A stretch of DNA of 24,000 nucleotides. It comes from Geomobilimonas luticola (GTDB lineage: Bacteria; Desulfobacterota; Desulfuromonadia; Geobacterales; Geobacteraceae). The notes beneath the pieces were generated by a model, which was not told the DNA's origin, did no database searches, and worked only from the letters and a program-made list of their open reading frames with translations. The stretch is from NCBI RefSeq assembly GCF_018476905.1, contig NZ_JAHCVK010000010.1:7806-31805 (forward strand), given 5' to 3'. Shown piece by piece: positions 3,901 through 16,032 of this stretch. The first letter of the stretch is position 1; each line of letters begins with the position of its first letter. The position numbers and the translations under genes were made by a program.

Positions 3901-4227
3901 GGAACTGATGAAGTCGGCTATTGAGGTGATGTTGTTTTCTTTGCTGATCCTGACGATTTTGCGCAACAGAAACCACCAGGAAAAAGCGGTGAGCGTCGGT
4001 CCCAGATAGATGAGGCTGAAATCGAGGCCGGTGGTGGCAGCCCGTCCGACGCTACCGTAATAGGTCCAGGTGGTAAGATAGACAGCGATGGAGAGGACGT
4101 AGATATAGGGGTTGGAGATGATACTCCTCCCCAGCATTTTCCGCCTGTCTGCATAGTAGGCAATCGTGACGAGCAACAGCACATAGAGGAGTGCCGCTCC
4201 CACGACGAGTTCAATGCTGAGGATCAA
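988..4227 (-). CDS. Sodium:solute symporter (SLC5/SSF)-like membrane domain fused to GAF and PP2C/SpoIIE serine phosphatase (RsbU-like)
   Basis: 1079-aa ORF with a TTG start at 4227 that overlaps the upstream stop (TTGA); AGAGGGGAG lies upstream. Residues ~1-520 are polytopic and SSF-like. A helical linker follows, then a GAF-like segment (~655-810, '...GVLSVFSRS...LAGQLAQAIRIDAE'). The C-terminal SpoIIE/PP2C region has 'HVGGDYYDFF', 'IADVSGHSVGAALIMA', 'ANAGHNQPLL' and 'LLMYTDGITEA'. Confidence 0.9.
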   Translation of the reverse strand: MILSIELVVGAALLYVLLLVTIAYYADRRKMLGRSIISNPYIYVLSIAVYLTTWTYYGSVGRAATTGLDFSLIYLGPTLTAFSWWFLLRKIVRISKENNITSIADFISSRYGKSQWLGALITFIAIVGIMPYIALQLKAVSSTFDIICGYPYIQLPFMHGNYPFSIHTSFFAALFFSIFGVIFGARRLVSSERHEGLVAAIAAESILKLVAFICVGIYVTYGLFDGFGDIFSRMAAKEEMLGHLVTFGDTGETSYSNWFSMICLSMGAIILLPRQFHIMVIENSSEEHIKKAMWMFPAYMFLINMFVMPIALGGILYTGDILGADYFVLTLPLKSGHSWLALMAFLGGFSAAAGMVMVESVAISTMFLNHLLMPIVVRFKPRTWFPMMLINLKRLGIFLVVFLGYIYQQIVGETYMLVNIGLISFAAVIQFAPALIGGLYWRRGNKAGAITGIFLGFLVWFYTLLLPSLVKSGWWQSSILDEGPFGIGILKPTELFGLSGFDIWTNALFWSLLLNIGGYLACSIILPQNDREKEQVRKFVDVFTLHRQDAPWEAKRFSKPVTIIQFVNLMTKFIGEHQAHTAISEYLGDREIDEKGGVSEFELPNLKRFVEKTLAGSVGAAAAGAIVESYLSDIGSRMESVYDIYSKVRADLNESSENLFVRLRASEIMNRTLDLQIIMDDLVDLVRKEFKFDLVIIRLISDHNLLVVKSYRGEHISAIIDRSALPDINTYLGDALLGNRPSFLNDTENNAKPESRELLARDGIKSFAHIPIAREGEAPLGVLSVFSRSIVGQFTPPFLKLLTSLAGQLAQAIRIDAEIRAKDKERLEKELAQLENARVLRDMEIAKQIQLSLLPDNPPEIAGMQFACRCIPAAHVGGDYYDFFPKNASVDIVIADVSGHSVGAALIMAETRTVLRAEVRSKNSPGEILTALNDLLHDDLSRAELFITMFYVTFETATRRLTYANAGHNQPLLFRRNSPSCLELDAEGLILGIRRVVDFEEKEVQLSPGDILLMYTDGITEAQNEAGELYGMGRLCDLLGKMEGETAEKILEGVLRDVARYAKSTTLQDDISIVVVKVL

Positions 4228-4481
4228 TGGCGCTCCCCTCTGTCGTCCTCGTCTTCAGGCAATTCAATAGCTTTGGTGTAGAGGTAGATGACAAATATGG
4301 AGACCAGCCAGCCGATCTGCAGATAGATGAAGAGCAGGGGGATATGGTATGCCTGATACGGCTTGTTGAAGATGGAAATAAAGGGATGGTTCATCATGAT
4401 TATCCCGAGTATGAAGAAAATAACCCATGATTCCCGGAGCCGCAGGCGTTTCAGTATCAATAGTCTCAATTTGTGCCACAT
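4224..4481 (-). CDS. Small two-TM membrane protein, possible symporter small subunit (DUF4212-like)
   Basis: 85-aa ORF with two hydrophobic helices and an acidic C-terminus. Its ATG at 4481 directly abuts the upstream stop (4482-4484), and its stop overlaps the TTG start of the SSF-domain gene. The family assignment rests on size, topology and position only. Confidence 0.55.
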   Translation of the reverse strand: MWHKLRLLILKRLRLRESWVIFFILGIIMMNHPFISIFNKPYQAYHIPLLFIYLQIGWLVSIFVIYLYTKAIELPEDEDDRGERH

Positions 4482-6044
4482 TCAGAGTAACCCCATACCT
4501 TTGAGAACCCCGTCGACTGCATCGATGACGGGGTGAGTGCAGTCAGCGACGATGAGCATTCCTTCGTCCTTCCCCGGTGATTCGAATTCATCCCGTTGCC
4601 GATGAAACAGTTCCCATCTCCCGTCCGAAATTTCCCCTTCGTTTCCAGCCCGTGCGTCGAGCCGCATCCGGATTGTCCTTTCGGGGCATTCGGTCCTGAG
4701 CATAACGAAGGGGACCTTGTACTGTTCTGCAAGTGCACGGAACGACGAGCGGTCGCTCTTTCTGCTGAAGGTGGCGTCGATGATGACGCTCCGGCCGTTC
4801 CGAAGGGACTCTTCGCCTCTGGTCAGCAATGCTGCATAGGTCGCTTCGTTGAACGACTGATTGTATATCCCCGCGCCGTAATCGTCTTTCTGGTGTTCCT
4901 GGGGTGGGATGGCGGCAATTTCCTTGCGGACCGCATCCGAACTGGCCGTTTCCACCCCCAGTTCAAAGGCGAACTCCCTGGCCAGGGTGCTTTTCCCGCT
5001 TCCCATCAGGCCACAGGTGATGAACAGGGTTGGAGACAGCTTCTGGCGGAGAATGTATCCCCTGGCCAGCCGGAAATAGCGGATCGCCTTTTTCCGTGCC
5101 TCCTGTTTTGCTGCGGTCGTGATCTGCTGGTCCAGAAGCCTGAAGCTCTCCACCTTCCCTCTGACGAAGGCGCGGTATACCTTGTAGAAGTCCAGTACCC
5201 GCATGGCGCCCTGGTCTCCGGTTGCGCCGGTGTACGCCTCCAGAAAGATGTCGGCGAGGGAGCGCCTCCCGTGGAAGTCCAGTTCCATCAGGAGGAAGGC
5301 GATATCCGCCGCGGTGTCGCCGTAACGAAAGCGGCTGTTGAATTCGATGCAGTCGAAGATGCAGACCTTGTCGGTCAGGCAGATGTTTTCCGGATGGATA
5401 TCGCCGTCACCGTCCCTGATGAATCCTCCTGCGATCCTGTCGGCAAAAAGCTCTCCCTTCTCGATGAGAAACCTGTTAACCCATTCTCTTATCACCAGCA
5501 GGTCCTGTTTAGCCAGTGAAATAGTGATGAATTCCTCTGCCTGATGGAAATTTTCCTCCCAGTTGCGCCTTATCGCCTCGATGCTGCCGAAAGCGTCAAT
5601 CTCTTCACCTCTTTCGGCGTTTTGATGAAATGCGGCAATGGTGAGAGCGATCCTGCGCATATCATCGGCACCGACCTTGTCTTCTCTCAGGAGCCGGTCC
5701 AGCATCCGTTCCGCAGGGAGTCGCTTCATTTTAACCGCGTAGTCTATGATTTTCCCTTCACCGTCGAATGTCGCTCCCTCCGCCGACTCGCGAACCTCCA
5801 CCACTCCCAGGTAGATGTCCGGGCAGAGGCGGCGGTTGAGACGAACCTCCTCGTCACAGTAAAAGCGGCGGCGGTCCAGGGTGGTAAAGTCCAGAAAGCC
5901 GAAATCGACCGGTTTCTTTACCTTGTAGACATGGGTGTCGGTTATGAAGAGAAATGAAACATGGGTCTGGAGTAGCTGAACGGTATGTGTCGGTTCAGGA
6001 TACGCCGAGGTCTTCAGTAGTGCACTGATAACCCATGGTTCCAT
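4482..6044 (-). CDS. Bifunctional aminoglycoside-phosphotransferase-like kinase / P-loop (AAA_33-type) kinase fusion protein
   Basis: 520-aa ORF with AAGGAAG RBS before the ATG at 6044. The N-terminal half has an APH/choline-kinase-type catalytic loop 'DGDIHPENICL' and 'FDCIEF...GDTAADIAFLLMEL'. The C-terminal part has Walker A 'GLMGSGKST'. Confidence 0.8.
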   Translation of the reverse strand: MEPWVISALLKTSAYPEPTHTVQLLQTHVSFLFITDTHVYKVKKPVDFGFLDFTTLDRRRFYCDEEVRLNRRLCPDIYLGVVEVRESAEGATFDGEGKIIDYAVKMKRLPAERMLDRLLREDKVGADDMRRIALTIAAFHQNAERGEEIDAFGSIEAIRRNWEENFHQAEEFITISLAKQDLLVIREWVNRFLIEKGELFADRIAGGFIRDGDGDIHPENICLTDKVCIFDCIEFNSRFRYGDTAADIAFLLMELDFHGRRSLADIFLEAYTGATGDQGAMRVLDFYKVYRAFVRGKVESFRLLDQQITTAAKQEARKKAIRYFRLARGYILRQKLSPTLFITCGLMGSGKSTLAREFAFELGVETASSDAVRKEIAAIPPQEHQKDDYGAGIYNQSFNEATYAALLTRGEESLRNGRSVIIDATFSRKSDRSSFRALAEQYKVPFVMLRTECPERTIRMRLDARAGNEGEISDGRWELFHRQRDEFESPGKDEGMLIVADCTHPVIDAVDGVLKGMGLL

Positions 6045-6357
6045 GTGGACTTCCTTAACTTCATGATTTTACGTTAAAATGTATCACAAGAGACTGCGTG
6101 CGCAAGAAGCAACTAAATTGCACCTGATTTGTTTGACGGGTGTAGCGAAGTATGCTAGTTTTTTAAGGTATTGCGAGCAAGCCTGTTTCACTGGTGAAAG
6201 TGCCCTTCAACCTGTCTATTGCATCCCGCCTGATTGTTCTTGCCCCCCGTATCCGGGTTGGCATGACTGATAAGGATACTGCCTTGCAGTCTACTGCCGG
6301 GGGGAAATTGCGACATAGAAAAACGTAATAATTTCATTGCTTCAAAAGGAATTTATT

Positions 6358-7038
6358 ATGTTTAAAAGTTTCGCCGCAAGAACCATCGGGACGATGGCAT
6401 TGACCATTGCCGGAATTATTGTTGTCGGCACGGTTCTTTTCTACTCGGTCATCAAGACCGATGTGATAAACGAGACGATACACTATGCCACCAGGTTGGC
6501 TGACACTATCATAAAGTCCACCCGATATGCCATGCTCACGTCGGACAGGGTCACCCTGGGCAAGATAATCGACAATATCGGCGAGCAGGAAGGGGTGGAG
6601 CATGTGCAGATATTCAATAAAAAGGGGTTGGTCATGTTTTCTTCCCACCACGAAGAGATCAACCGCTTTGTGGACAAGAAGGCGGCTGGCTGCATAGGAT
6701 GTCATGCCGGACCGATTGCCGCCACCATGATGGGGCGCATGGAGCAGGCCAGACGGTATGTGAATGCGCAGGGGAAAAATGTTCTTGCCATAACGGCGCC
6801 GATCTACAATGAGCCGGACTGCTCCAGCGCTCTCTGCCATGTCCATCCCGCCGAACAGAAAGTTCTCGGTACACTGGATATCGGTCTCTTCGAGGAGCCG
6901 TTGCAAAAGGGACTGGTGGTCATGCGGGGAAGGTTAATGGCCTTTAGCGCCATTCTCCTGGTTGTGGCTTGTGCTGCAGTTGTTTTAGTACTCAAACCCC
7001 TCCTGTCGGATCAGACGAGGGATTCCCGGCCCTTGTGA
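6358..7038 (+). CDS. Stand-alone TM-flanked periplasmic sensor domain with c-type heme motifs (resembles the N-terminus of a HAMP histidine kinase; possible gene remnant)
   Basis: ATG at 6358 with AGGA 7 nt upstream (the ORF-track TTG at 6337 is less likely). TM1 is 'MALTIAGIIVVGTVLFY'. The periplasmic region contains 'CIGCH' (CxxCH) and 'CSSALCH' (Cx4CH). TM2 is 'MAFSAILLVVACAAVVLVL'. The ORF stops 14 residues after TM2, with no HAMP, HisKA or HATPase domain in any frame downstream. Confidence 0.7.
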   Translation: MFKSFAARTIGTMALTIAGIIVVGTVLFYSVIKTDVINETIHYATRLADTIIKSTRYAMLTSDRVTLGKIIDNIGEQEGVEHVQIFNKKGLVMFSSHHEEINRFVDKKAAGCIGCHAGPIAATMMGRMEQARRYVNAQGKNVLAITAPIYNEPDCSSALCHVHPAEQKVLGTLDIGLFEEPLQKGLVVMRGRLMAFSAILLVVACAAVVLVLKPLLSDQTRDSRPL

Positions 7039-7119
7039 AGGAGACCGGGCCTGGCGTTTCAACCACGGTTCTTGCGACCCGTTACATACGAAGCTGCTGT
7101 TATCTTGTCAGGACGTCAC

Positions 7120-8835
7120 ATGAAAAATGCATTACTGGCGACACTCGTTCTTTCCTCGCTGCTGTCTGCCTGCACGGCAGGCCAGATCAGAAATGATGAT
7201 GTTTCGGCTGTTTCTCCCCACACGACTCTGAATATCAGCGACTCGCGAGCGATGTACATCTTTTCGCTCGCCCGGATCCATGCCCTGGATGGCGATCTGG
7301 ATGGTGCTCTGGCGCTTATGCTTGCCGCTGCGGAAGCCGACCCGAAGGGGGCTTATCTCCAGACAGCGATCGCAACCGTTTACGCCAAGATGAACCGGTA
7401 CCAGGAAGCCCTGGATGCCTGCGAAAGAGCCATCACACTCGACCCGAAGAGCGCTGAGCCCCACATTCTGGCCGGCGGCATCCTTGTCGGGATGAAGCGG
7501 GACCGGGAGGCGAGTCTCCACTACAAGCAGGCGATCGAAATCGATCCGACCAAGGAGGATGTCTACCTTCAACTGGCTGTCGTGTATGTGAAACTGTTCG
7601 AATACGAGGAAGCGGTCAAGACCCTCAAGGACCTTCTCAAGGTGGTTCCCGATTCGCATCTCGGCAATTATTACCTCGGCAAGACCTACGACCAGATGAA
7701 GCTCTCGAAAGAGGCGATCGGGTATTACCGGAAGGCAGTCGAACTGAAACCGGATTTCGAGCAGGCCCTCCTCGACCTGGCAATCAGCCAGGAAACCCAC
7801 GGCCTCTATGGCGACGCCATTGCAGCCTATAAACAGCTGCTTGAGGTAAATCCCCTCAACTACAATGTCATTCACCACCTGATCCAGCTCTATATCCAGC
7901 AGCAGCGCCTGGAAGATGCGCTTTCACTTCTCTCTGAAATCAAGCACTCGGGGGTGAGCACCCTCGATGTGCAGCGGAAGATCGGCCTGATCTATCTGGA
8001 GCTGGAGCGGTATGACGACGCCATAGCCGAATTCAACGACATTCTCGCTAAGGAGCCGGAGGCGCACCAGGCACGCTTCTACCTCGCTTCCGCCTACGAG
8101 GAGATCGAGGAGAATGAAAAGGCGATTGCCGAGTTCGGCAAAATTCCGCGGGATAGCGCCAGCTACGTCGATGCCCAGGTACACATCGCCTATCTCTATA
8201 AGGATAATGGTGAACCGGCACGTGGTCTGGAAATTCTTGAAGCACTCATCGCGGCCTATCCGGACAAGGTCGAAGTATACCTCAATCTGGCCGGCTACCA
8301 TGATTCTCTCGGCAAACCGGAGAAAGGGCTCAAGACGCTTACCGATGTGGAGAGCCGCTTTCCGAGCGATCCCCGCCTGCAGTTTCGCCTCGGTGTTCTC
8401 TTCGACAAGGTGGGGAAGAAGGATGAGTCAATCGCCCGGATGAAAAAGGTGCTGACACTGGTGCCCGACGATGCCCAGGCCCTCAACTACCTGGGGTACA
8501 CCTATGCCGAACTCGGGACCAACCTGGATCAGGCGCTCCAGTACCTGACACGAGCGGTGGCGCTGCGTCCCGATGACGGCTTCATCCTTGACAGCCTGGG
8601 ATGGGTATACTTCAAGCTCAAGCGTTACGACGATGCCATCGAACAGCTGGAGAAGGCACTGACGCTTGTGGACGACGATGCCACCATCACCGCGCATCTC
8701 GCCGACGTCTATTATGCAAGGCATGACATCCGCAAGGCGCTTGCCCTCTACCGCAAGGCTCTCAGGCTGGACCCGGAGCGCCGGGACGTGGCGGACAGGA
8801 TCAGGAAAATCAAGGCGGAGATCGGCGAAAAATGA
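7120..8835 (+). CDS. TPR-repeat lipoprotein
   Basis: The lipoprotein signal 'MKNALLATLVLSSLLSAC' begins at ATG 7120, an internal Met of the 7072 ORF. More than 12 tandem 34-aa TPR-like units follow (e.g. 'AYLQTAIATVYAKMNRYQEALDACERAITLDPKS'). The stop overlaps the next gene's start (ATGA). Confidence 0.85.
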   Translation: MKNALLATLVLSSLLSACTAGQIRNDDVSAVSPHTTLNISDSRAMYIFSLARIHALDGDLDGALALMLAAAEADPKGAYLQTAIATVYAKMNRYQEALDACERAITLDPKSAEPHILAGGILVGMKRDREASLHYKQAIEIDPTKEDVYLQLAVVYVKLFEYEEAVKTLKDLLKVVPDSHLGNYYLGKTYDQMKLSKEAIGYYRKAVELKPDFEQALLDLAISQETHGLYGDAIAAYKQLLEVNPLNYNVIHHLIQLYIQQQRLEDALSLLSEIKHSGVSTLDVQRKIGLIYLELERYDDAIAEFNDILAKEPEAHQARFYLASAYEEIEENEKAIAEFGKIPRDSASYVDAQVHIAYLYKDNGEPARGLEILEALIAAYPDKVEVYLNLAGYHDSLGKPEKGLKTLTDVESRFPSDPRLQFRLGVLFDKVGKKDESIARMKKVLTLVPDDAQALNYLGYTYAELGTNLDQALQYLTRAVALRPDDGFILDSLGWVYFKLKRYDDAIEQLEKALTLVDDDATITAHLADVYYARHDIRKALALYRKALRLDPERRDVADRIRKIKAEIGEK

Positions 8836-10451
8836 ACCGCTGCCGGCTCGTCTGCCTGGTACTGCTCGTTTTTTCTCTCGCTGCCTGTAATGAAGGGAAA
8901 CAGGCAGTTCCCGCCGGTCCGCGGCTTCCAGGCATCCCTGCCTACGGAGATGCCCTGGTGGCGGGCTCCATCGGTGAACCCTCGACCCTTCTCCCTCTGC
9001 TGGCCTCCGACAGCGCGTCCCGGGATGTTGCGGGGCAAATCTACAACGGGCTGGTAAGGTACGACAAGAATCTGAAGCTTGAGGGTGATCTGGCCGAGAA
9101 ATGGGAGATTTCCCGCGATGGTCTTACCATAACCTTTCACCTGCGCAAGGGTGTAACGTGGCATGATGGCCAACCGTTCACTTCCCGTGATGTTCTCTAT
9201 ACCTACCGGGTCACCATAGACCCCAAAACCCCCACAGCCTATGCCGAGAATTTCAAACAGGTGAAACGGGCTGAAGCGCCCGACCCTTATACTTTCAGGG
9301 TCACCTATGCAAAGCCTTTCGCTCCTGCCCTGGAGTCGTGGGGGGTCGAGATTCTCCCTGCCCATCTTCTGGAAGGCAAGGATGTCACCAGGAGCGAACT
9401 GGCTCGCCAGCCGGTAGGAACCGGCCCGTACCGCTTCAAGGAGTGGATTGCCGGCCAGAAGCTCGTGCTGGAATCCAACCATGACTATTACGAGGGAAGA
9501 CCGTACATCGATCGCTACGTCTACCGGATCATCCCCGATACTGCCACCATGTACATGGAGCTCAAGGCGGGCGGGCTCGACATGATGGGGCTCACGCCGG
9601 TGCAGTACCAGCGGCAGACCACCACGAAGGAATTCCTTTCCCGTTTCAACAAATACCGCTATCCCGCTTCCGCCTATACCTACCTGGGGTACAATCTCCG
9701 CCATCCGCTGTTCAGCGACCGACGGGTCAGGCAGGCCATCACGTCGGCCATCAGCAAGGATGAGATCATCCAGGGGGTGCAGTTTGGCATGGGGCAGGTG
9801 GCCCACGGTCCCTATAAACCCGGCACGTGGGCCTATAATCCCAACGTGCGTGACTTCACCTACAATCCCGACCGGGCCCGAGCGCTTCTGGCAGAAGCGG
9901 GCTGGCGAGACAAGAACGACGACGGCATCCTGGTCAAGGACGGCAAGCCGTTTTCCTTCACCATCCTGACCAACCAGGGGAACGACCAACGTCTGAAAAC
10001 CGCGCTCATTATCCAGCAGCGCCTGAAGGCGGTTGGCATCGAGGTCAAGATACGGACCATAGAATGGGCCTCCTTCCTCAAGAATTTCATCGACAAGGGT
10101 GATTTCCAGGCGATCATTCTCGGCTGGACCATCGGCCAGGACCCGGACCTGTTCGACGTCTGGCATTCCAGCAAGACGGGGCCCCGGGAGCTGAACTTCG
10201 TCGGTTACAAAAATGCGGAAGTTGACCGGCTCATCGAACAGGGACGGGGGACCTTCGATCAGGAGGAGCGCAGGCGCTGTTACTACCGTATCCAGGAGAT
10301 ACTGGCGGAGGACCAGCCCTATACGTTCCTCTATGTTCCCGATGCCCTGCCGGTGGTGAGCGCGCGGTTCCGGGGAATCGAACCGGCTCCGGCGGGGATC
10401 ATGCACAATTTCATCAGGTGGTATGTGCCGAAAGGGGAGCAGGTGTACTGA
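8832..10451 (+). CDS. ABC transporter substrate-binding lipoprotein, family 5 (Opp/Dpp/Nik/Gsi type)
   Basis: 539-aa ORF with lipobox 'LVFSLAAC'. Contains a family-5 SBP-like block '[21 protein letters not shown]'. Size is typical for the family, and the gene is followed by two Dpp-type permease genes. Confidence 0.9.
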
Positions 10452-11440
10452 TGCTCTATTATCTCGCCAAACGTCTGCTGCTGATGATCCCGCTTCTCGT
10501 CGGCATAACCGTCATCACCTTTACGGTTATCCACCTCGCTCCCGGGGAGCCGGTGGAGATGCAGGTAGCCATGAACCCCAAGGTGTCGGCGGAGGCCCGG
10601 GAACGGCTGCGCAAGTTCTATGAACTGGACAAGCCGCTTCACGTGCAGTACGCCAAGTGGGTCTCCCGGTTGGTGCGGCTCGATTTCGGCCGGTCTTTCG
10701 CCCCCGACGGCCGTCCCGTCATCACCAAGATCCGGGAGCGGCTGCCGGTAACCATCTCTCTCAATCTTATCGTTCTCATCCTTGAATTCGCCCTCGCCAT
10801 CCCCATCGGCATCATGGCCGCAACCCATCGCGACGGTCCCCTCGACCGCTGGACCACGGTATTCGTCTTTCTCGGCTTCGCAACGCCGCTCTTCTGGCTC
10901 AGTCTCATCCTCATGTATCTGTTCGGCGTCAAGCTCGACTGGCTCCCCATTTCCGGGCTTCACTCTCTCGGATACGAGGCCCACGGCTTCTGGTGGCGGG
11001 TTGGAGATATGGCAAAGCATCTCGTCATTCCCCTTGGGGTCGCGACCTTCGGCAGCCTGGCCGGTCTGTCCCGCTATATGCGGACCGGCATGATCGAGGT
11101 GCTTGGACAGGATTACATCATGACCGCCCGGGCCAAAGGCCTGCCGGAACGGGTCGTCATCTACCGTCATGCCCTGCGCAACGCGCTCCTGCCTGCCATC
11201 ACCATTCTTGGCCTGTCGATACCGGCGCTCATCGGTGGCAGTGTCATTTTCGAAAGCATCTTCGCCATTCCCGGCATGGGGAAACTCTTCATGGACGGGG
11301 TCATGGCCCGCGATTATCCGCTGGTAATGGGGGTTCTTGTCATCGGTGCCGTGCTGACTCTGCTCGGCAACCTGCTGGCAGACCTGGCCTATGCCATAGC
11401 CGATCCCCGCATACGACACGGGCGGGAGCGTGCGTTATGA
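10451..11440 (+). CDS. ABC transporter permease (DppB/OppB-like)
   Basis: The likely start is ATG 10451 ('[16 protein letters not shown]...'), overlapping the SBP stop (TGATG). Multi-TM protein with the EAA-loop region '[27 protein letters not shown]'. Confidence 0.9.
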
Positions 11441-12297
11441 CCCGGCGTGACAGTTACCTGCGGGACGTGGTCTGGCGGCGGTTCCGGGAAAACCGGTTTG
11501 CCCTGGCCGGAGGTATGGTGGTGCTTGCCCTGTTCGTACTGTCGATCCTGGCCCCGTTCATAACCCCCTACGAACCGAACTCACTCGATGCCTATCATGT
11601 CCTGCTTCCGCCATCATCAGCCCACTGGTTCGGTACCGACGAGGTGGGGCGTGACGTCTTCACCCGCATGCTCTACGGCGCCCAGATATCCCTCAAGGTC
11701 GGTTTTGTCGCCGTCGGCATCGCCACCCTCATTGGCACCGTCGTCGGCCTCGTGTCCGGTTATTATGGCGGCTGGCTGGACAGCCTGCTGATGCGGTTCG
11801 TCGACATCATGTTCTGCTTCCCGACCTTTTTCCTGATTCTGGCAGTGATAGCCCTTCTGGAGCCCTCCATCTGGTACATCATGCTGATCATCGGCCTTAC
11901 GGGATGGATGGGGGTAGCCCGGCTGGTGCGGGCCGAGGTCCTTTCCATCAGGGAACGGGACTATGTCCTGGCGGCCCGGGTGATCGGCTGTTCCGATATG
12001 CGCATCATCTTTCGCCACATTCTCCCCAACGCCGTGGGGCCGGTTCTGGTGTACGCCACCCTCGGCATCGCCGGCGCCATCCTGACCGAGTCGTCCCTCT
12101 CCTTCCTCGGCATCGGCGTTCCGCCTCCTACGCCGAGCTGGGGGAACATTCTGGCATCCGGCAAGGAATTCCTCGAATTCGCCTGGTGGCTTTTCCTCTT
12201 TCCCGGTCTCGCCATCATGGTCACCGTTCTCTCCTACTACCTGGTGGGGGAGGGGATTCGGGACGCCATCGATCCCCGGTTCAGCTCTCGTCGGTGA
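11437..12297 (+). CDS. ABC transporter permease (DppC/OppC-like)
   Basis: ATG 11437 overlaps the previous stop (ATGA). The protein starts '[16 protein letters not shown]...' and has the EAA-loop region '[27 protein letters not shown]'. The 10993 ORF-track start is an out-of-context extension lying inside the preceding gene. Confidence 0.9.
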
Positions 12298-12355: not shown

Positions 12356-12859
12356 ATGTCAGCCAGTTATGCGGAACTGAAGATCAATAAAAAGGATTTC
12401 GACCAGGAAACCCTGGATGATGCTCTTCGCGTCGATCGTCTCTGCCAGGATCTCCTGCGGGGGTTCTACGATGCACTCCTGGAAGGGGGGGAGTCTCCCG
12501 AAGCGGCGACCCGCCTAGCGAACGGAGCCGATTACTATGTCCGTGATTTCGTCGTGGACAACCGGTCGCGCAACGTATTCGACGAGCGTCCAGGCCTTGT
12601 TCGCCAGTTTGCCGGTAACTGGTACATCGTGAGCACCATCGAGCCTGATATTGCCCAGCTTGGCCGGTACCTGGAGGGAATTCTCTCCTTTTACCGCTAT
12701 CTCCATGGCCGCAAGCTCGTTTCCGACCGTTTTCTCCGGCAGGTCGAGCAGGAATGTGGCGATCTGGCCTTCTACGAGCGCCGGATCGAGGAGTTCTGGG
12801 CTATCAAGGGGGACGGGTATGTCGCCTGGGAAAAGGGCTGCAGTCTGAAGGAGGATTGA
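12356..12859 (+). CDS. Hypothetical cytoplasmic protein (167 aa), no family recognised
   Basis: ORF with AGAGGT before the ATG. It ends 2 nt before the next gene's start. No TM segment and no motif I recognise. Confidence 0.6.
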   Translation: MSASYAELKINKKDFDQETLDDALRVDRLCQDLLRGFYDALLEGGESPEAATRLANGADYYVRDFVVDNRSRNVFDERPGLVRQFAGNWYIVSTIEPDIAQLGRYLEGILSFYRYLHGRKLVSDRFLRQVEQECGDLAFYERRIEEFWAIKGDGYVAWEKGCSLKED

Positions 12860-12861
12860 CG

Positions 12862-13725
12862 ATGCCGGACCGGTGGGAAACAGTGATAGGGAGGCTTGAG
12901 AGTTTTCTGGCAAAGGCGGAAGTTCTCATGGACCGCTATGGGGTGTCCGAACCGCTGGACGAGACTGTTTTCACCCAGTGCCAGGCGTTCCGCTGGGAAG
13001 GGAAGGGGGGCGCCGGCCGCCTTGTACCGGTTCGGCACCCCCACCTGCCCGATCTGGACGACCTGGTCGGAGTCGATATTGCCAAAGCGGAACTGGTGCG
13101 CAACACCGCCCAGTTCGTCGCTGGCCGGCCTGCCAACAACGTTCTCCTCTGGGGGGAGCGAGGGACCGGCAAATCATCCTGCGTCAAAGGGCTCCTGCGG
13201 CTATTTGCCGACCATGGCCTGCGCCTGATCGAGGTGGAGCGGGGAGAACTCCTGAGCCTGCCACGGATATCGGCACTTGTCCGCTGTGTACCCTACCGGT
13301 TCATTGTTTTCTGTGACGACCTCTCCTTTGCCGCGGGGGACGCCACGTACCAGGAGTTGAAAACCCTTCTTGATGGCGGAATCGAAGCACGTCCCGGCAA
13401 TATGCTCATCTATGCCACCTCCAATCGGCGCCACCTGATGCCCGAAACGATGGGGGACAACCTCCGGGAGGAGATCCATCCGGAGGAGGCGGTTTCCGAC
13501 AAGCTTTCCCTGGCCGACCGGTTCGGCCTCACCCTCAGTTTCCATCCCTTCAGCCAGGATACCTATCTTGCCATCGTTGACCATTACGCCGACAGCCTGG
13601 GACTTGACACAAACCGGGATGACCTGCGACGGGAGGCACTCAGGTGGGCGCTCTACAAGGGGCAACGGTCGGGCAGGGCGGCACGCCAGTTCATCGACGA
13701 CCTGGCGGGAAGGATTGACGCGTGA
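12862..13725 (+). CDS. DUF815-family AAA-type ATP-binding protein
   Basis: ATG 12862 has GAAGGAGGA ending 6 nt upstream. Contains Walker A 'LLWGERGTGKSS', 'FIVFCDDLSF' (Walker B) and 'LIYATSNRRHLMPE', which match my memory of the DUF815 (PF05673) consensus. Confidence 0.8.
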   Translation: MPDRWETVIGRLESFLAKAEVLMDRYGVSEPLDETVFTQCQAFRWEGKGGAGRLVPVRHPHLPDLDDLVGVDIAKAELVRNTAQFVAGRPANNVLLWGERGTGKSSCVKGLLRLFADHGLRLIEVERGELLSLPRISALVRCVPYRFIVFCDDLSFAAGDATYQELKTLLDGGIEARPGNMLIYATSNRRHLMPETMGDNLREEIHPEEAVSDKLSLADRFGLTLSFHPFSQDTYLAIVDHYADSLGLDTNRDDLRREALRWALYKGQRSGRAARQFIDDLAGRIDA

Positions 13726-14891
13726 CACAGAAACCGCTTTCAGCAGGGGGTATTCGTTCCGTGAAACCGGTGGAGCCGTGCTCGAGCGTTTCGCCTGAAG
13801 GGCCGGAGATTGACAAGCCTCCCTGTTGAGGCCCCAAGACACCCGCGGTCAGCGGGTCCATCGACGAGAATGTTCCCGGGTTCATCCGCTGGCTGGAGAC
13901 CCTGGTTGGCAGGGTGCCGGTCATCTCCTCCACCCTCCGTTTCCGCGACCGTGCCGGTGCCTGGAAGGCGCGCTGGGGGATCGGCAGGATGTCCTACCTG
14001 GTGCCGCCGGGGCTCTACGCCATCGGAACCCCCGGCCCCGCCGATCCGGTGGCGGTTACCGCCAACTACAAGATGAGCTACGACCTGGTGCGGCAAGCCA
14101 TGGCGGGACGTGATATCTGGCTTCTGGTGCTGGAGACGTATGGCATCAATGTCTGGTGTGCGGCGGGGAAGGGAACCTTCGGTACCGGCGAGCTGGTACG
14201 CCGGCTGGAGGCGAGCGGCCTGGCCCGGGTGGTGACGCATCGCACCATTCTCCTGCCGCTCCTTGGGGCGCCAGGTGTCAAGGCACAGGAAGTCAGGCAG
14301 CGGACCGGCTTCACCGCCAGGTTCACCACCATCCGGATCGAAGACCTCCCCCTCTACCTCGACAACGGTCAGAAGGCCACCCCGGCCATGGGGGAACTCA
14401 CCTTTACCGCGGGGGAGCGGCTGGTGCTCGTTCCTGTCGAATTGGTTTCCGCACTCAAGGTTTCACTCCCTATCCTTGCGGTCCTTTACCTTCTGGCGGG
14501 TATGGCGTACGGTTTTACAGCTCCGGCTGCTTTTTTCCCTCTCGTGGTCTGGCTTGGGGGTGTGATCGCCGGGGCCGTGGTAACCCCCGTGCTGCTCCCG
14601 TGGCTGCCGACGCCAAGCTTTGCGGTTAAAGGGGCACTGGCCGGATTGCTCTTGGCACTGCTCTTTGCCGGCCTTTCCGCTACGGGGAGACGGCTGGAAT
14701 CGGCGGCGCTTTTTCTTGTCCTGCCGGCGGTGAGCGCCTTTTTCTCCCTTAATTTCACCGGCAGCACCCCCTTTACTTCCCGCTCGGGCGTGAAGAAAGA
14801 GATGCGCATTTCCCTGCCGCTCATGGCCGTAGCCGTCCTCGCCGGTGTTGCGGCATGGGTTGCGGGAATGTTAGCTCCCCTCTACCACTAA
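13722..14891 (+). CDS. hgcA: Mercury-methylation corrinoid protein HgcA; model includes an N-terminal extension read through in-frame TGA 13827-13829 (candidate Sec). The conservative model starts at GTG 13914.
   Basis: Diagnostic cap-helix motif 'GINVWCAAGKGTFGT' (NVWCAAGK at 14148-14171), preceded by 'RWGIGRM...PGLYAIG...VTANYKMSYD'. The C-terminal part is polytopic membrane domain. A GTGA overlap with the DUF815 stop and the GGGAAGGA SD support a start at 13722. The only in-frame stop between 13722 and 14891 is the TGA at 13827. Confidence 0.9.
13841..13857 (+). promoter_or_regulatory. SECIS-like stem-loop 11 nt downstream of the in-frame UGA in hgcA
   Basis: ACCCGC-GGUCA-GCGGGU: a perfect 6-bp stem with a 5-nt GGUCA loop, 17 nt in total, beginning 11 nt after TGA 13827-13829. 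Confidence 0.5.
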
Positions 14892-14904: not shown

Positions 14905-15195
14905 TTGAAAGGTTTCAGCTATCTGAAAAACGTGGCAACCCTGGAACTTGACCAAGACACCTGTATCGGTTGCGGGATGTGCGCGGTAGTCTGTCCCCAC
15001 CAGGTGTTTTCTCTCGAAGGAAGAAAGGCAGCTATTCGCGCCTTCGATGCCTGCATGGAGTGCGGTGCCTGTGCCCTCAACTGTCCGGTAAAGGCAATAA
15101 ACGTGGATGCGGGGGTCGGCTGTGCGGCGGGAATGATCAACGAATGGTTCGACAGTCTTAACCTGCGGCGTCGCAGGGGGGATGGCTGCTGCTGA
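14905..15195 (+). CDS. hgcB: Mercury-methylation ferredoxin HgcB (2x[4Fe-4S])
   Basis: 96-aa ORF with a TTG start; AGGAGAGG ends 4 nt upstream. Two CxxCxxCxxxCP clusters ('CIGCGMCAVVCP', 'CMECGACALNCP', the latter containing the HgcB-typical ECGAC). An extra Cys occurs in 'GVGCAAG', and the protein ends in a 'GCC' pair. It lies 13 nt after hgcA. Confidence 0.92.
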   Translation: MKGFSYLKNVATLELDQDTCIGCGMCAVVCPHQVFSLEGRKAAIRAFDACMECGACALNCPVKAINVDAGVGCAAGMINEWFDSLNLRRRRGDGCC

Positions 15196-15302: not shown

Positions 15303-15333
15303 TGTCTAACTTTAACACCATGGAGGAATGGAA

Positions 15334-16032
15334 ATGAAGAGAATGGGAAGAAACGTAATCAAGTATGGTGCCGTAGTGGTTCTGACAGCCTGGAGCGCTG
15401 CGGCAGCGGCATCCGGCGGGGGAGCGGGCATCTCTGCCGATGAAGCGTGGCAGAAGCTGATGGACGGGAATACGCGATATCTTGAAAGCAAAATGACCGG
15501 TGTGAAAAACTGTGACCTTGCGGCTCGCGATACGCTCGCCAAGGGGCAAAAACCCTATGCGATCATCGTCTCCTGTTCCGATTCCCGGGTGCCGCCTGAA
15601 CTGATATTCGACGAGGGGCTCGGCGAAATCTTTGTGGTACGGGTGGCTGGTAACGTTGTGGATCCCATCGTTCTCGGCAGCATCGAATACGCCGCGGAAC
15701 ACCTCGGTTCGCCCCTGGTCGTGGTGCTCGGCCATGAGCGCTGCGGTGCCGTAACCGCGGCCGTCGATGCAAAAGGGAAACCGGAGGGGAATATCGGCGC
15801 CATTGTCAAGGAGATTGCGCCTGCGGTGAAAAAGGCGCGGAAGGAAGCCGCAGGCAAGGAGAAAGCGGAACTGGTGGAAACTGCCATCAACGACAACATA
15901 CGGCTCGTGGCCGCCAATATCCAGAAAAAATCGCCGGTCATCAGGCATATGCTCAAGGAAGGAAAGGTCAAGGTCGTAACCGCCAAGTACGACCTGGATG
16001 ACGGCAAGGTGACGAAGCTGGAAGCAAAATAG
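15334..16032 (+). CDS. Beta-class carbonic anhydrase with N-terminal signal peptide
   Basis: Zinc-ligand motifs 'CSDSR' and 'HERCGAV'. ATG 15334 has GGAGGA 6 nt upstream. The N-terminus 'MKRMGRNVIKYGAVVVLTAWSAAAAA' looks like a Sec signal peptide. Confidence 0.9.
   Translation: MKRMGRNVIKYGAVVVLTAWSAAAAASGGGAGISADEAWQKLMDGNTRYLESKMTGVKNCDLAARDTLAKGQKPYAIIVSCSDSRVPPELIFDEGLGEIFVVRVAGNVVDPIVLGSIEYAAEHLGSPLVVVLGHERCGAVTAAVDAKGKPEGNIGAIVKEIAPAVKKARKEAAGKEKAELVETAINDNIRLVAANIQKKSPVIRHMLKEGKVKVVTAKYDLDDGKVTKLEAK

Follow-up and report, generated by a model that had tools for sequence, protein, structure and literature searches.

Predicted selenocysteine decoding in the hgcA gene of Geobacter luticola and a candidate SECIS hairpin downstream of its UGA codon

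Introduction

HgcA makes the neurotoxin methylmercury, and its gene in Geobacter luticola raises a simple question: is the in-frame UGA that lies upstream of the annotated start a stop codon, or is it decoded as selenocysteine (Sec)? The stretch analysed here is a 24-kb window of G. luticola DNA (Geomobilimonas luticola in the sequence header), and all coordinates are positions in this window. The UGA at 13827-13829 of hgcA probably encodes Sec, which would make hgcA a selenoprotein gene; judged from sequence comparison, the probability of this reading is put at roughly 0.9. A Sec-containing HgcA with a selenocysteine insertion sequence (SECIS) resembling that of Escherichia coli fdhF had been proposed from the DNA letters of the window in an earlier analysis (the original prediction). 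The proposal is supported by the alignment with cysteine (Cys)-type homologues, by the TGA of 67 out of 80 related loci, by purifying selection, by the position of upstream start codons, by a conserved hairpin and by the literature. Sec-containing HgcA is already known, having been published in 2022-2023, and the present case is a correct rediscovery that adds one more orthologue.

The Reading Frame and Start of hgcA

The features of hgcA on which the argument depends are the following.

13707..13714, + strand: Shine-Dalgarno (SD)-like sequence GGGAAGGA, 7 nt 5' of GTG 13722 (from the sequence)
13722..14891, + strand: full-length hgcA coding sequence, 389 codons plus TAA 14889-14891, with predicted Sec at codon 36 (from translation)
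13824..13829, + strand: predicted Cys-Sec dyad TGT-TGA (C35-U36) inside PPCUGP (aligned with Cys-type homologues and loci)
13841..13857, + strand: SECIS-like hairpin ACCCGC-GGUCA-GCGGGU, with a 6-bp stem and a 5-nt loop, 11 nt 3' of the UGA (centroid fold)
13872..13913, + strand: conserved block VPGFIRWLETLVGR (residues 51-64), removed by the old annotation (54-sequence alignment)
13914..13916, + strand: database-annotated start GTG, corresponding to the internal Val65 codon, with a 325-aa product
14157..14159, + strand: cap-helix Cys C146 of NVWCAAGK (residues 143-150) (from translation)

The hgcA frame extends from GTG 13722 to the TAA that ends at 14891, with one internal stop, the TGA at 13827-13829, directly after a TGT (Cys) codon. 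The original prediction had placed the start at this GTG, overlapping the TGA with which the upstream DUF815 gene ends (GTGA, 13722-13725), with an SD sequence 7 nt upstream and a single TGA after TGT in a frame of 389 codons, and all of these statements hold in the sequence. The same is true of its observation that the annotated start, GTG 13914, has no spaced SD and is abutted by GGCAGG. Its claim that 13830-13913 contains no ATG, GTG or TTG stands for the hgcA frame but fails out of frame, where ATG and TTG occur.

The peptide read through the TGA is ...IDKPPC-U-GPKTPAVSGSIDENVPGFIRWLETLVGR-VPVISS..., and the pentapeptide PCUGP is found within it as PPC-TGA-GPK (13818-13838), at the one UGA that interrupts the frame 5' of the old start. 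The database protein of the species (P0001 [Geobacter luticola]), named acetyl-CoA synthase subunit gamma, shows 100% identity over 325 aa to the open reading frame (ORF) 13914-14891. The hgcA gene of G. luticola almost certainly starts 192 bases 5' of this annotated start.

Conservation of the Dyad and Its Flanks

A protein search with the 389-aa read-through product, in which U was written as C, returned thousands of HgcA matches, and the best 120 were compared. These are distributed in two length classes with none between them, 79 proteins of 373-434 aa and 41 of 298-349 aa, the 389 aa of the window HgcA falling in the range of the full-length, Cys-type class. The 79 full-length homologues share a near-invariant ...DKPPCCGP... 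segment (dyad context CCG(P/A/T)), followed by ...VPGFxxWLxTxxGRVPxxS..., and the window TGA falls exactly in the column of the second Cys in their PCCGP motif. The 41 shorter homologues, truncated in their annotation, start at assorted points after the dyad.

Residue conservation was assessed in a 54-sequence HgcA alignment, with the columns of C35 and U36 numbered according to the 389-aa protein. C35, C36, G37, P52, G53 and W57 are invariant, and all of them lie upstream of the annotated start. In the block of residues 51-64, V51, F54, T60 and G63 are nearly invariant as well; the original prediction had named a conserved block preceding RWGIGR, and this proved correct, the block being VPGFxxWLxTxxGRVPxxS in the homologues. 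Further downstream, the cap-helix motif N(V/I)WCA(A/G)GK is present, with N143, V144, W145 and C146 invariant, C146 being the cap-helix cysteine, whose role as the corrinoid ligand is established (Parks 2013; Smith 2015).

The AlphaFold2 model of a Cys-type homologue (P0018, 60% identical to the window HgcA; 53-sequence alignment) has a mean predicted local distance difference test (pLDDT) score of 77.9. Residues 1 to ~40, including the CC dyad, have a pLDDT below 50 and are predicted to be a disordered tail. The segment VPGF...VPxVSS is modelled as a beta-hairpin (E53-59, E62-67), with a pLDDT of 83-94 in the block, and the equivalent of residues 51-64 constitutes its strand 1. The old start is disfavoured by this model, since a protein begun at the residue equivalent to 13914 would lack strand 1. 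The membrane domain is modelled as five long helices (229-385), and the window HgcA, with a predicted C-terminal multi-helix transmembrane domain, aligns over this five-helix region.

The NCBIfam equivalog model for HgcA (the hidden Markov model NF040863) matches residues 65-382 of the 389 aa with 435.4 bits against a cutoff of 275. This profile, of 325 positions, begins at the old N-terminus and leaves the conserved CU/CC extension outside the model, which may help truncated calls to persist in annotations made without PGAP (41 of the 120 best matches are truncated).

At the DNA level, species-representative genomes were scanned, and 80 loci with the closest HgcA relatives were retained, mostly from Geobacteraceae, Desulfuromonadales and Syntrophales. 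The codon at the second position of the dyad is TGA in 67 of the 80 loci and TGC or TGT in the other 13, and the peptide is conserved on both sides; Cys or TGA thus aligns at this column in the 79 full-length proteins and in all of these loci. Ratios of non-synonymous to synonymous substitution rates (dN/dS) were calculated by the Nei-Gojobori method among the window and the three species closest to it (L001-L003). Before the TGA (35 codons) the ratio is 0.11-0.38; the 28 codons from the TGA to the old start give 0.06-0.19, and the 300 codons that come next, in the gene body, give 0.09-0.14. Both flanks of the TGA are therefore considered protein-coding, since purifying selection acts on each side of it (0.06-0.38 over 13722-13913).

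The upstream start is also conserved. In the window and L001-L003, the start codon is located exactly 35 codons before the TGA, as ATG in L001 and L002 and as GTG in L003 and the window, and it overlaps the stop of the upstream DUF815 gene in every case (ATGA or GTGA). Equivalents of the SD sequence GGGAAGGA are found at the same spacing in L001-L003, as GGGGAGG, GGAAGG and GGGAGG. Of the 64 TGA loci open to assessment, 64 have a start codon in frame upstream, with no stop between it and the TGA. Downstream of the TGA, the nearest in-frame start is at codon +7 to codon +82 in the TGA loci, so that no internal start is conserved.

Two other in-frame GTG codons, 22 and 19 codons before the TGA, were considered as starts. 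They were judged unlikely, because L002 has only the ATG at -35 and because a conserved I-R-S motif lies upstream of both.

A Candidate SECIS Hairpin

As described in the original prediction, the hairpin ACCCGC-GGUCA-GCGGGU begins exactly 11 nt after the TGA. Perfect Watson-Crick hairpins with a 6-bp stem and a 5-nt loop start at only 11 of the 23,983 possible window positions (0.05%), which makes its occurrence at this exact offset unlikely by chance. The hairpin was compared in 65 TGA-carrying sequences (the window and 64 loci) and in 12 Cys loci. Counted after the UGA, the two arms of its stem lie at positions 12-17 and 23-28, an offset shared by the 65 TGA-carrying sequences. The stem is complete, with all six pairs, in 55 of these 65 and in none of the 12 Cys loci. 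RNAalifold, applied to the 65 sequences with the window included, independently predicts the same helix.

The covariation that the original prediction proposed to look for among TGA-carrying orthologues is present. By pair counting, 97.2% of the cells are paired, compared with 40-70% in slid controls. Compensatory changes are found at three pairs, 12-28, 13-27 and 16-24 (counted after the UGA), in 38 cells in total, and in none of 500 column shuffles are the pairing, the covariation score or the count of pair types as high as those observed. Pair 12-28 is hard to explain by coding alone, because one partner is a synonymous third-codon position and the other a non-synonymous first one.

Two types of hairpin sequence can be distinguished. 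The Geobacter type, NCCCGC-GGUCA/G-GCGGGN, encodes K-T-P-A-V-S-G, and the wider type, CUCCGCC-GGN-GGCGGAG, with a 7-bp stem and a GGN triloop, encodes P-T-S-A-G-G-G. The apical loops are G-rich in all 65 TGA-carrying sequences (GGUCA or GGUCG in 22, CGGNG-type in 39 and others in 4). Taken together, the comparison supports the hairpin at 13841-13857 as a putative fdhF-like SECIS.

A separate observation concerns the Cys-type locus L058, which has TGC TGT at the dyad (L058:4064-4110). It still encodes GPKTSAGGG and keeps five of the six hairpin pairs, and it looks like a recent replacement of Sec by Cys with a decaying SECIS.

Points against Sec Decoding, and Sec Machinery in Relatives

Several observations weigh against a Sec codon served by this hairpin. 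The 76-nt fold around it has z = -0.05 relative to shuffles, and the hairpin is found in the centroid structure only, not in the minimum free energy structure; its significance rests on position and comparison, because folding energy does not single out the region. Conserved Ala and Gly-Gly codons give four of the six pairs even in most Cys loci, so that part of the stem signal is due to coding. Rfam shows no SECIS-type match, with chance ones only, either in the whole window at the gathering threshold or in 13780-13920 at E <= 10, a null result that says nothing either way, since the coverage of bacterial SECIS elements is poor. Furthermore, the hgcA stem consists of six perfect base pairs and lacks the bulged U seen in E. 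coli fdhF. The bulged U is a feature of the E. coli fdhF and fdnG elements and is not needed in bacterial SECIS elements generally.

Other points concern the machinery and the protein. The 24-kb window contains no selA, selB, selC or selD and no tRNA, and the literature searched reports no selenium labelling or mass spectrometry of HgcA. In addition, ND132 HgcA with an N-terminal His6-tag, full-length according to its authors, has been reported to methylate Hg in E. coli lysates, which argues against an essential catalytic role of the N-terminal tail. This construct apparently begins at the previously annotated start, in which case it would be without the Sec extension.

A SelB protein search, seeded with a Geobacter fragment (L076), retrieved partial SelB from other organisms only, with no G. 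luticola listed, and it confirmed that L076 encodes SelB. Sec decoding gains indirect support from three relatives with a TGA-type hgcA (L017, L076 and L057), which carry Sec machinery within ~4 kb of hgcAB. In Geotalea sp. SG265 (L017), with hgcA at 4001-5146 and hgcB at 5160-5450, a tRNA-SeC (5806-5903, - strand) is located ~350 nt downstream of hgcB, and a small CMD/AhpD-like ORF (5489-5788) lies between the two. L076 has the SelB N-terminus fragment at 8499-9107. In L057, a Geobacter metagenome-assembled genome, the region 5772-8737 (- strand) just downstream of hgcAB encodes a methyltransferase, SelD and a class-V aminotransferase that resembles NifS or selenocysteine lyase; the frame of this SelD is itself interrupted by a TGA in the column of the active-site Cys (..SCAG*AAK..). 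A Sec-machinery gene within this distance in 3 of 80 loci compares with a rough expectation below 1, and the excess is marginal.

Alternative Explanations of the UGA

The original prediction had named two alternatives, a 35-codon coupled upstream open reading frame (uORF) and a degraded N-terminus, and both are contradicted by the comparative data. In the first, the TGA would be a real stop, 13722-13829 would be a 35-codon uORF coupled to DUF815, and HgcA would be made by re-initiation at GTG 13914. This is where the database annotation and the NF040863 match (residues 65-382) begin, and HgcA that begins at the annotated start apparently shows activity in a heterologous lysate, if the ND132 construct is read rightly. 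However, GTG 13914 has no spaced SD, and the 28 codons between the TGA and this GTG, with their dN/dS of 0.06-0.19 and their invariant residues, correspond to a confidently modelled beta-strand in P0018. Re-initiation would also have to take place anywhere from codon +7 to +82 in the TGA loci, often within the conserved domain, and the Cys-type homologues are translated straight through the TGA column. A uORF with re-initiation is thus considered highly improbable.

A sequencing error, or a recent nonsense mutation with a degraded N-terminus, has in its favour that TGA is one base away from TGC and TGT. It would, however, have to account for the same TGA in 67 of 80 independent species assemblies, for intact flanks under purifying selection and for a position-specific hairpin that is absent from the Cys forms. 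On these sequence data it appears effectively refuted, with a negligible chance of being correct. A reassignment of the UGA codon was also considered and was ruled out, since DUF815 and hgcB, in the same operon, end at TGA as an ordinary stop.

Proposed Mechanism and Role of the Cys-Sec Tail

With the UGA of hgcA read as Sec, translation would begin at GTG 13722, coupled to the DUF815 stop and served by the SD sequence GGGAAGGA, and the ribosome would not terminate at UGA 13827-13829. The 17-nt hairpin, with its GGUCA loop, would act as a bacterial SECIS recruiting SelB-GTP-Sec-tRNA(Sec), and Sec would be inserted. The product would be a 389-aa HgcA, whose first ~45 residues would be a flexible tail with Cys20 and the vicinal Cys35-Sec36 (PPCUGP). 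The tail would be followed by the beta-hairpin (VPGF...VPVISS) of the corrinoid-binding domain, the cap-helix Cys146 and the five-helix membrane domain. SelB binding and actual Sec insertion in G. luticola are presumed in this scheme.

The function of the tail is a more tentative matter. The Cys-Sec pair, placed on a flexible segment, might bind Hg(II) or another soft metal or organometallic and pass it to the methyl-corrinoid site or to the C-terminal Cys pair of HgcB, a role that is quite possible while falling somewhat short of even odds. Heavy-metal binding by the HgcA tail has already been suggested in the accessible part of the literature. Vicinal Cys pairs on flexible tails are, by established knowledge, the classic means of Hg(II) hand-off in MerA, and HgcB has one. 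Moreover, the tails of the Cys-type homologues are richer in additional Cys, with a mean of 3.08 in the 35 residues upstream of the dyad versus 1.05, and the CU motif is common to the MerB-like SaoL, to SaoB/SaoC and to some MerT proteins.

Against this stands a doubtful yet serious alternative, in which the UGA is decoded as Sec while the tail serves some purpose other than accepting Hg(II). It could form a redox-active selenylsulfide, for example to activate the corrinoid or the HgcB clusters reductively or to protect them (CU/CC motifs occur in redoxins too), bind the native substrate, or make HgcA abundance dependent on selenium supply. The accessible literature assigns HgcAB no physiological function and regards Hg methylation as a possible side reaction. 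The methylation of Hg in lysate by an HgcA that apparently lacks the tail (the ND132 construct, as read above) agrees with such a role. HgcA is extremely scarce in cells, at ~0.0004% of protein, which would fit inefficient UGA decoding, and the latter could contribute to this scarcity.

A stronger proposal takes Cys35-Sec36 as the physiological Hg(II) acceptor, with selenium supply and Sec decoding setting the level of functional HgcA, and hence the rate of methylmercury formation, in most Geobacter-type methylators. In this form it is considered unlikely. If it were true, the occasional tRNA-Sec, selB or selD beside hgcAB would reflect the dependence of HgcA on Sec decoding.

Neighbouring Genes

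Two genes flank hgcA directly.

12862..13725, + strand: upstream DUF815 (AAA-type) gene (Pfam PF05673, E 4e-104), with its TGA stop at 13723-13725
14905..15195, + strand: hgcB ferredoxin, 96 aa, adjoining hgcA (NF040864, 128.7 bits against a cutoff of 99)

The longest DUF815 ORF (12754-13725) overlaps the preceding 167-aa ORF (12356-12859), which has no Pfam match, by ~100 nt. ATG 12862 is a likelier start than 12754, because the Pfam match in the longest ORF begins at residue 75 and because this ATG directly follows the stop of the neighbour. DUF815 is located immediately upstream of hgcA in 13 of the 80 related loci, and the closest Geobacter clade keeps the gene order DUF815-hgcA-hgcB-beta-carbonic anhydrase (15328-16032).

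The window HgcB ends in CC directly before its TGA stop, and the Cys of its GVGC motif is encoded by TGT. A GVGU (Sec) form has been reported for ~6% of HgcB proteins. Among the 74 HgcB sequences in which the motif was found, the window included, none has TGA at this position, and all carry TGC or TGT.

Upstream of the hgcA neighbourhood, the window also contains an oligopeptide-type ABC importer (8832-12297), with an SBP_bac_5 binding protein and two permeases. No ATPase gene for this importer is visible among the window ORFs examined.

Relation to Earlier Descriptions and Known Systems

The selenoprotein nature of HgcA was described by Haft and Gwadz (bioRxiv 10.1101/2022.07.06.499078; J Bacteriol 2023, 205:e00259-22). 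According to the accessible text of this work, the majority of HgcA proteins are selenoproteins carrying PCUGP, a motif that was perfectly conserved in 20 of 20 re-examined short HgcA genes, including GSU1440, and all 20 species examined encode Sec machinery. The same text remarks on the extra Cys in the tails of Cys-type HgcA and states that reference data were added to NCBI PGAP, so that RefSeq re-annotation corrects such genes. HgcA (NF040863, motif CU) is listed among prokaryotic selenoproteins in a 2026 review, and the selenoprotein prediction is cited in a 2024 PNAS biochemical paper.

The practical consequences are threefold. Many HgcA entries in databases are truncated, and the G. luticola protein is still the 325-aa form; expression constructs made from the old start, apparently including the published ND132 one, omit the tail and strand 1 of the beta-hairpin; and a Cys-Sec N-terminus bears on how selenium might influence mercury methylation. 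These implications for annotation, expression and selenium were all pointed out by Haft and Gwadz in 2022-2023. The accessible text of their work describes no SECIS for HgcA. The hairpin consensus, its two sequence classes, its covariation and the start of NF040863 at the old N-terminus are, relative to the accessible text, small additions, and only the anatomy of the hairpin and the selenium-gating consequence are absent from the accessible literature text.

The closest parallel for the hairpin is the E. coli fdhF SECIS, which is also a hairpin inside the coding sequence, 11 nt after the UGA and 17 nt long (GGUUGCAGGUCUGCACC), with GGUC in its apical loop; its sequence, checked against E. coli genomes, matched at 100%. 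Apart from the bulged U, two differences are seen. GGUC begins one nucleotide earlier in the hgcA hairpin, and many hgcA orthologues use the 7-bp CUCCGCC/GGCGGAG stem with a GGN triloop.

For the tail, the comparable systems are the C-terminal CC of MerA, NmerA and the C-terminal CC of HgcB, which, like the HgcA tail, present adjacent chalcogen ligands on a flexible segment (a predicted one in HgcA). In contrast to them, the HgcA tail is N-terminal and one of its ligands would be selenium, and the likeness is a presumed one of function.

Finally, the window HgcA can be set beside the forms described by Haft and Gwadz, such as Geobacter sulfurreducens GSU1440 and Pseudodesulfovibrio mercurii DND132_1056. 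As given in the accessible text, these likewise have a single UGA upstream of the former start and the PCUGP motif, and they are extended to 363-400 aa, compared with 389 aa in the window. The extension of GSU1440, MSQPGPDVDRPPCUGPKTPAVSGTINENVPGFLRWLDTPAGR, is almost the same peptide as ...IDKPPCUGPKTPAVSGSIDENVPGFIRWLETLVGR of the window. Nothing essential differs between them, and the window HgcA is the orthologue of another species.

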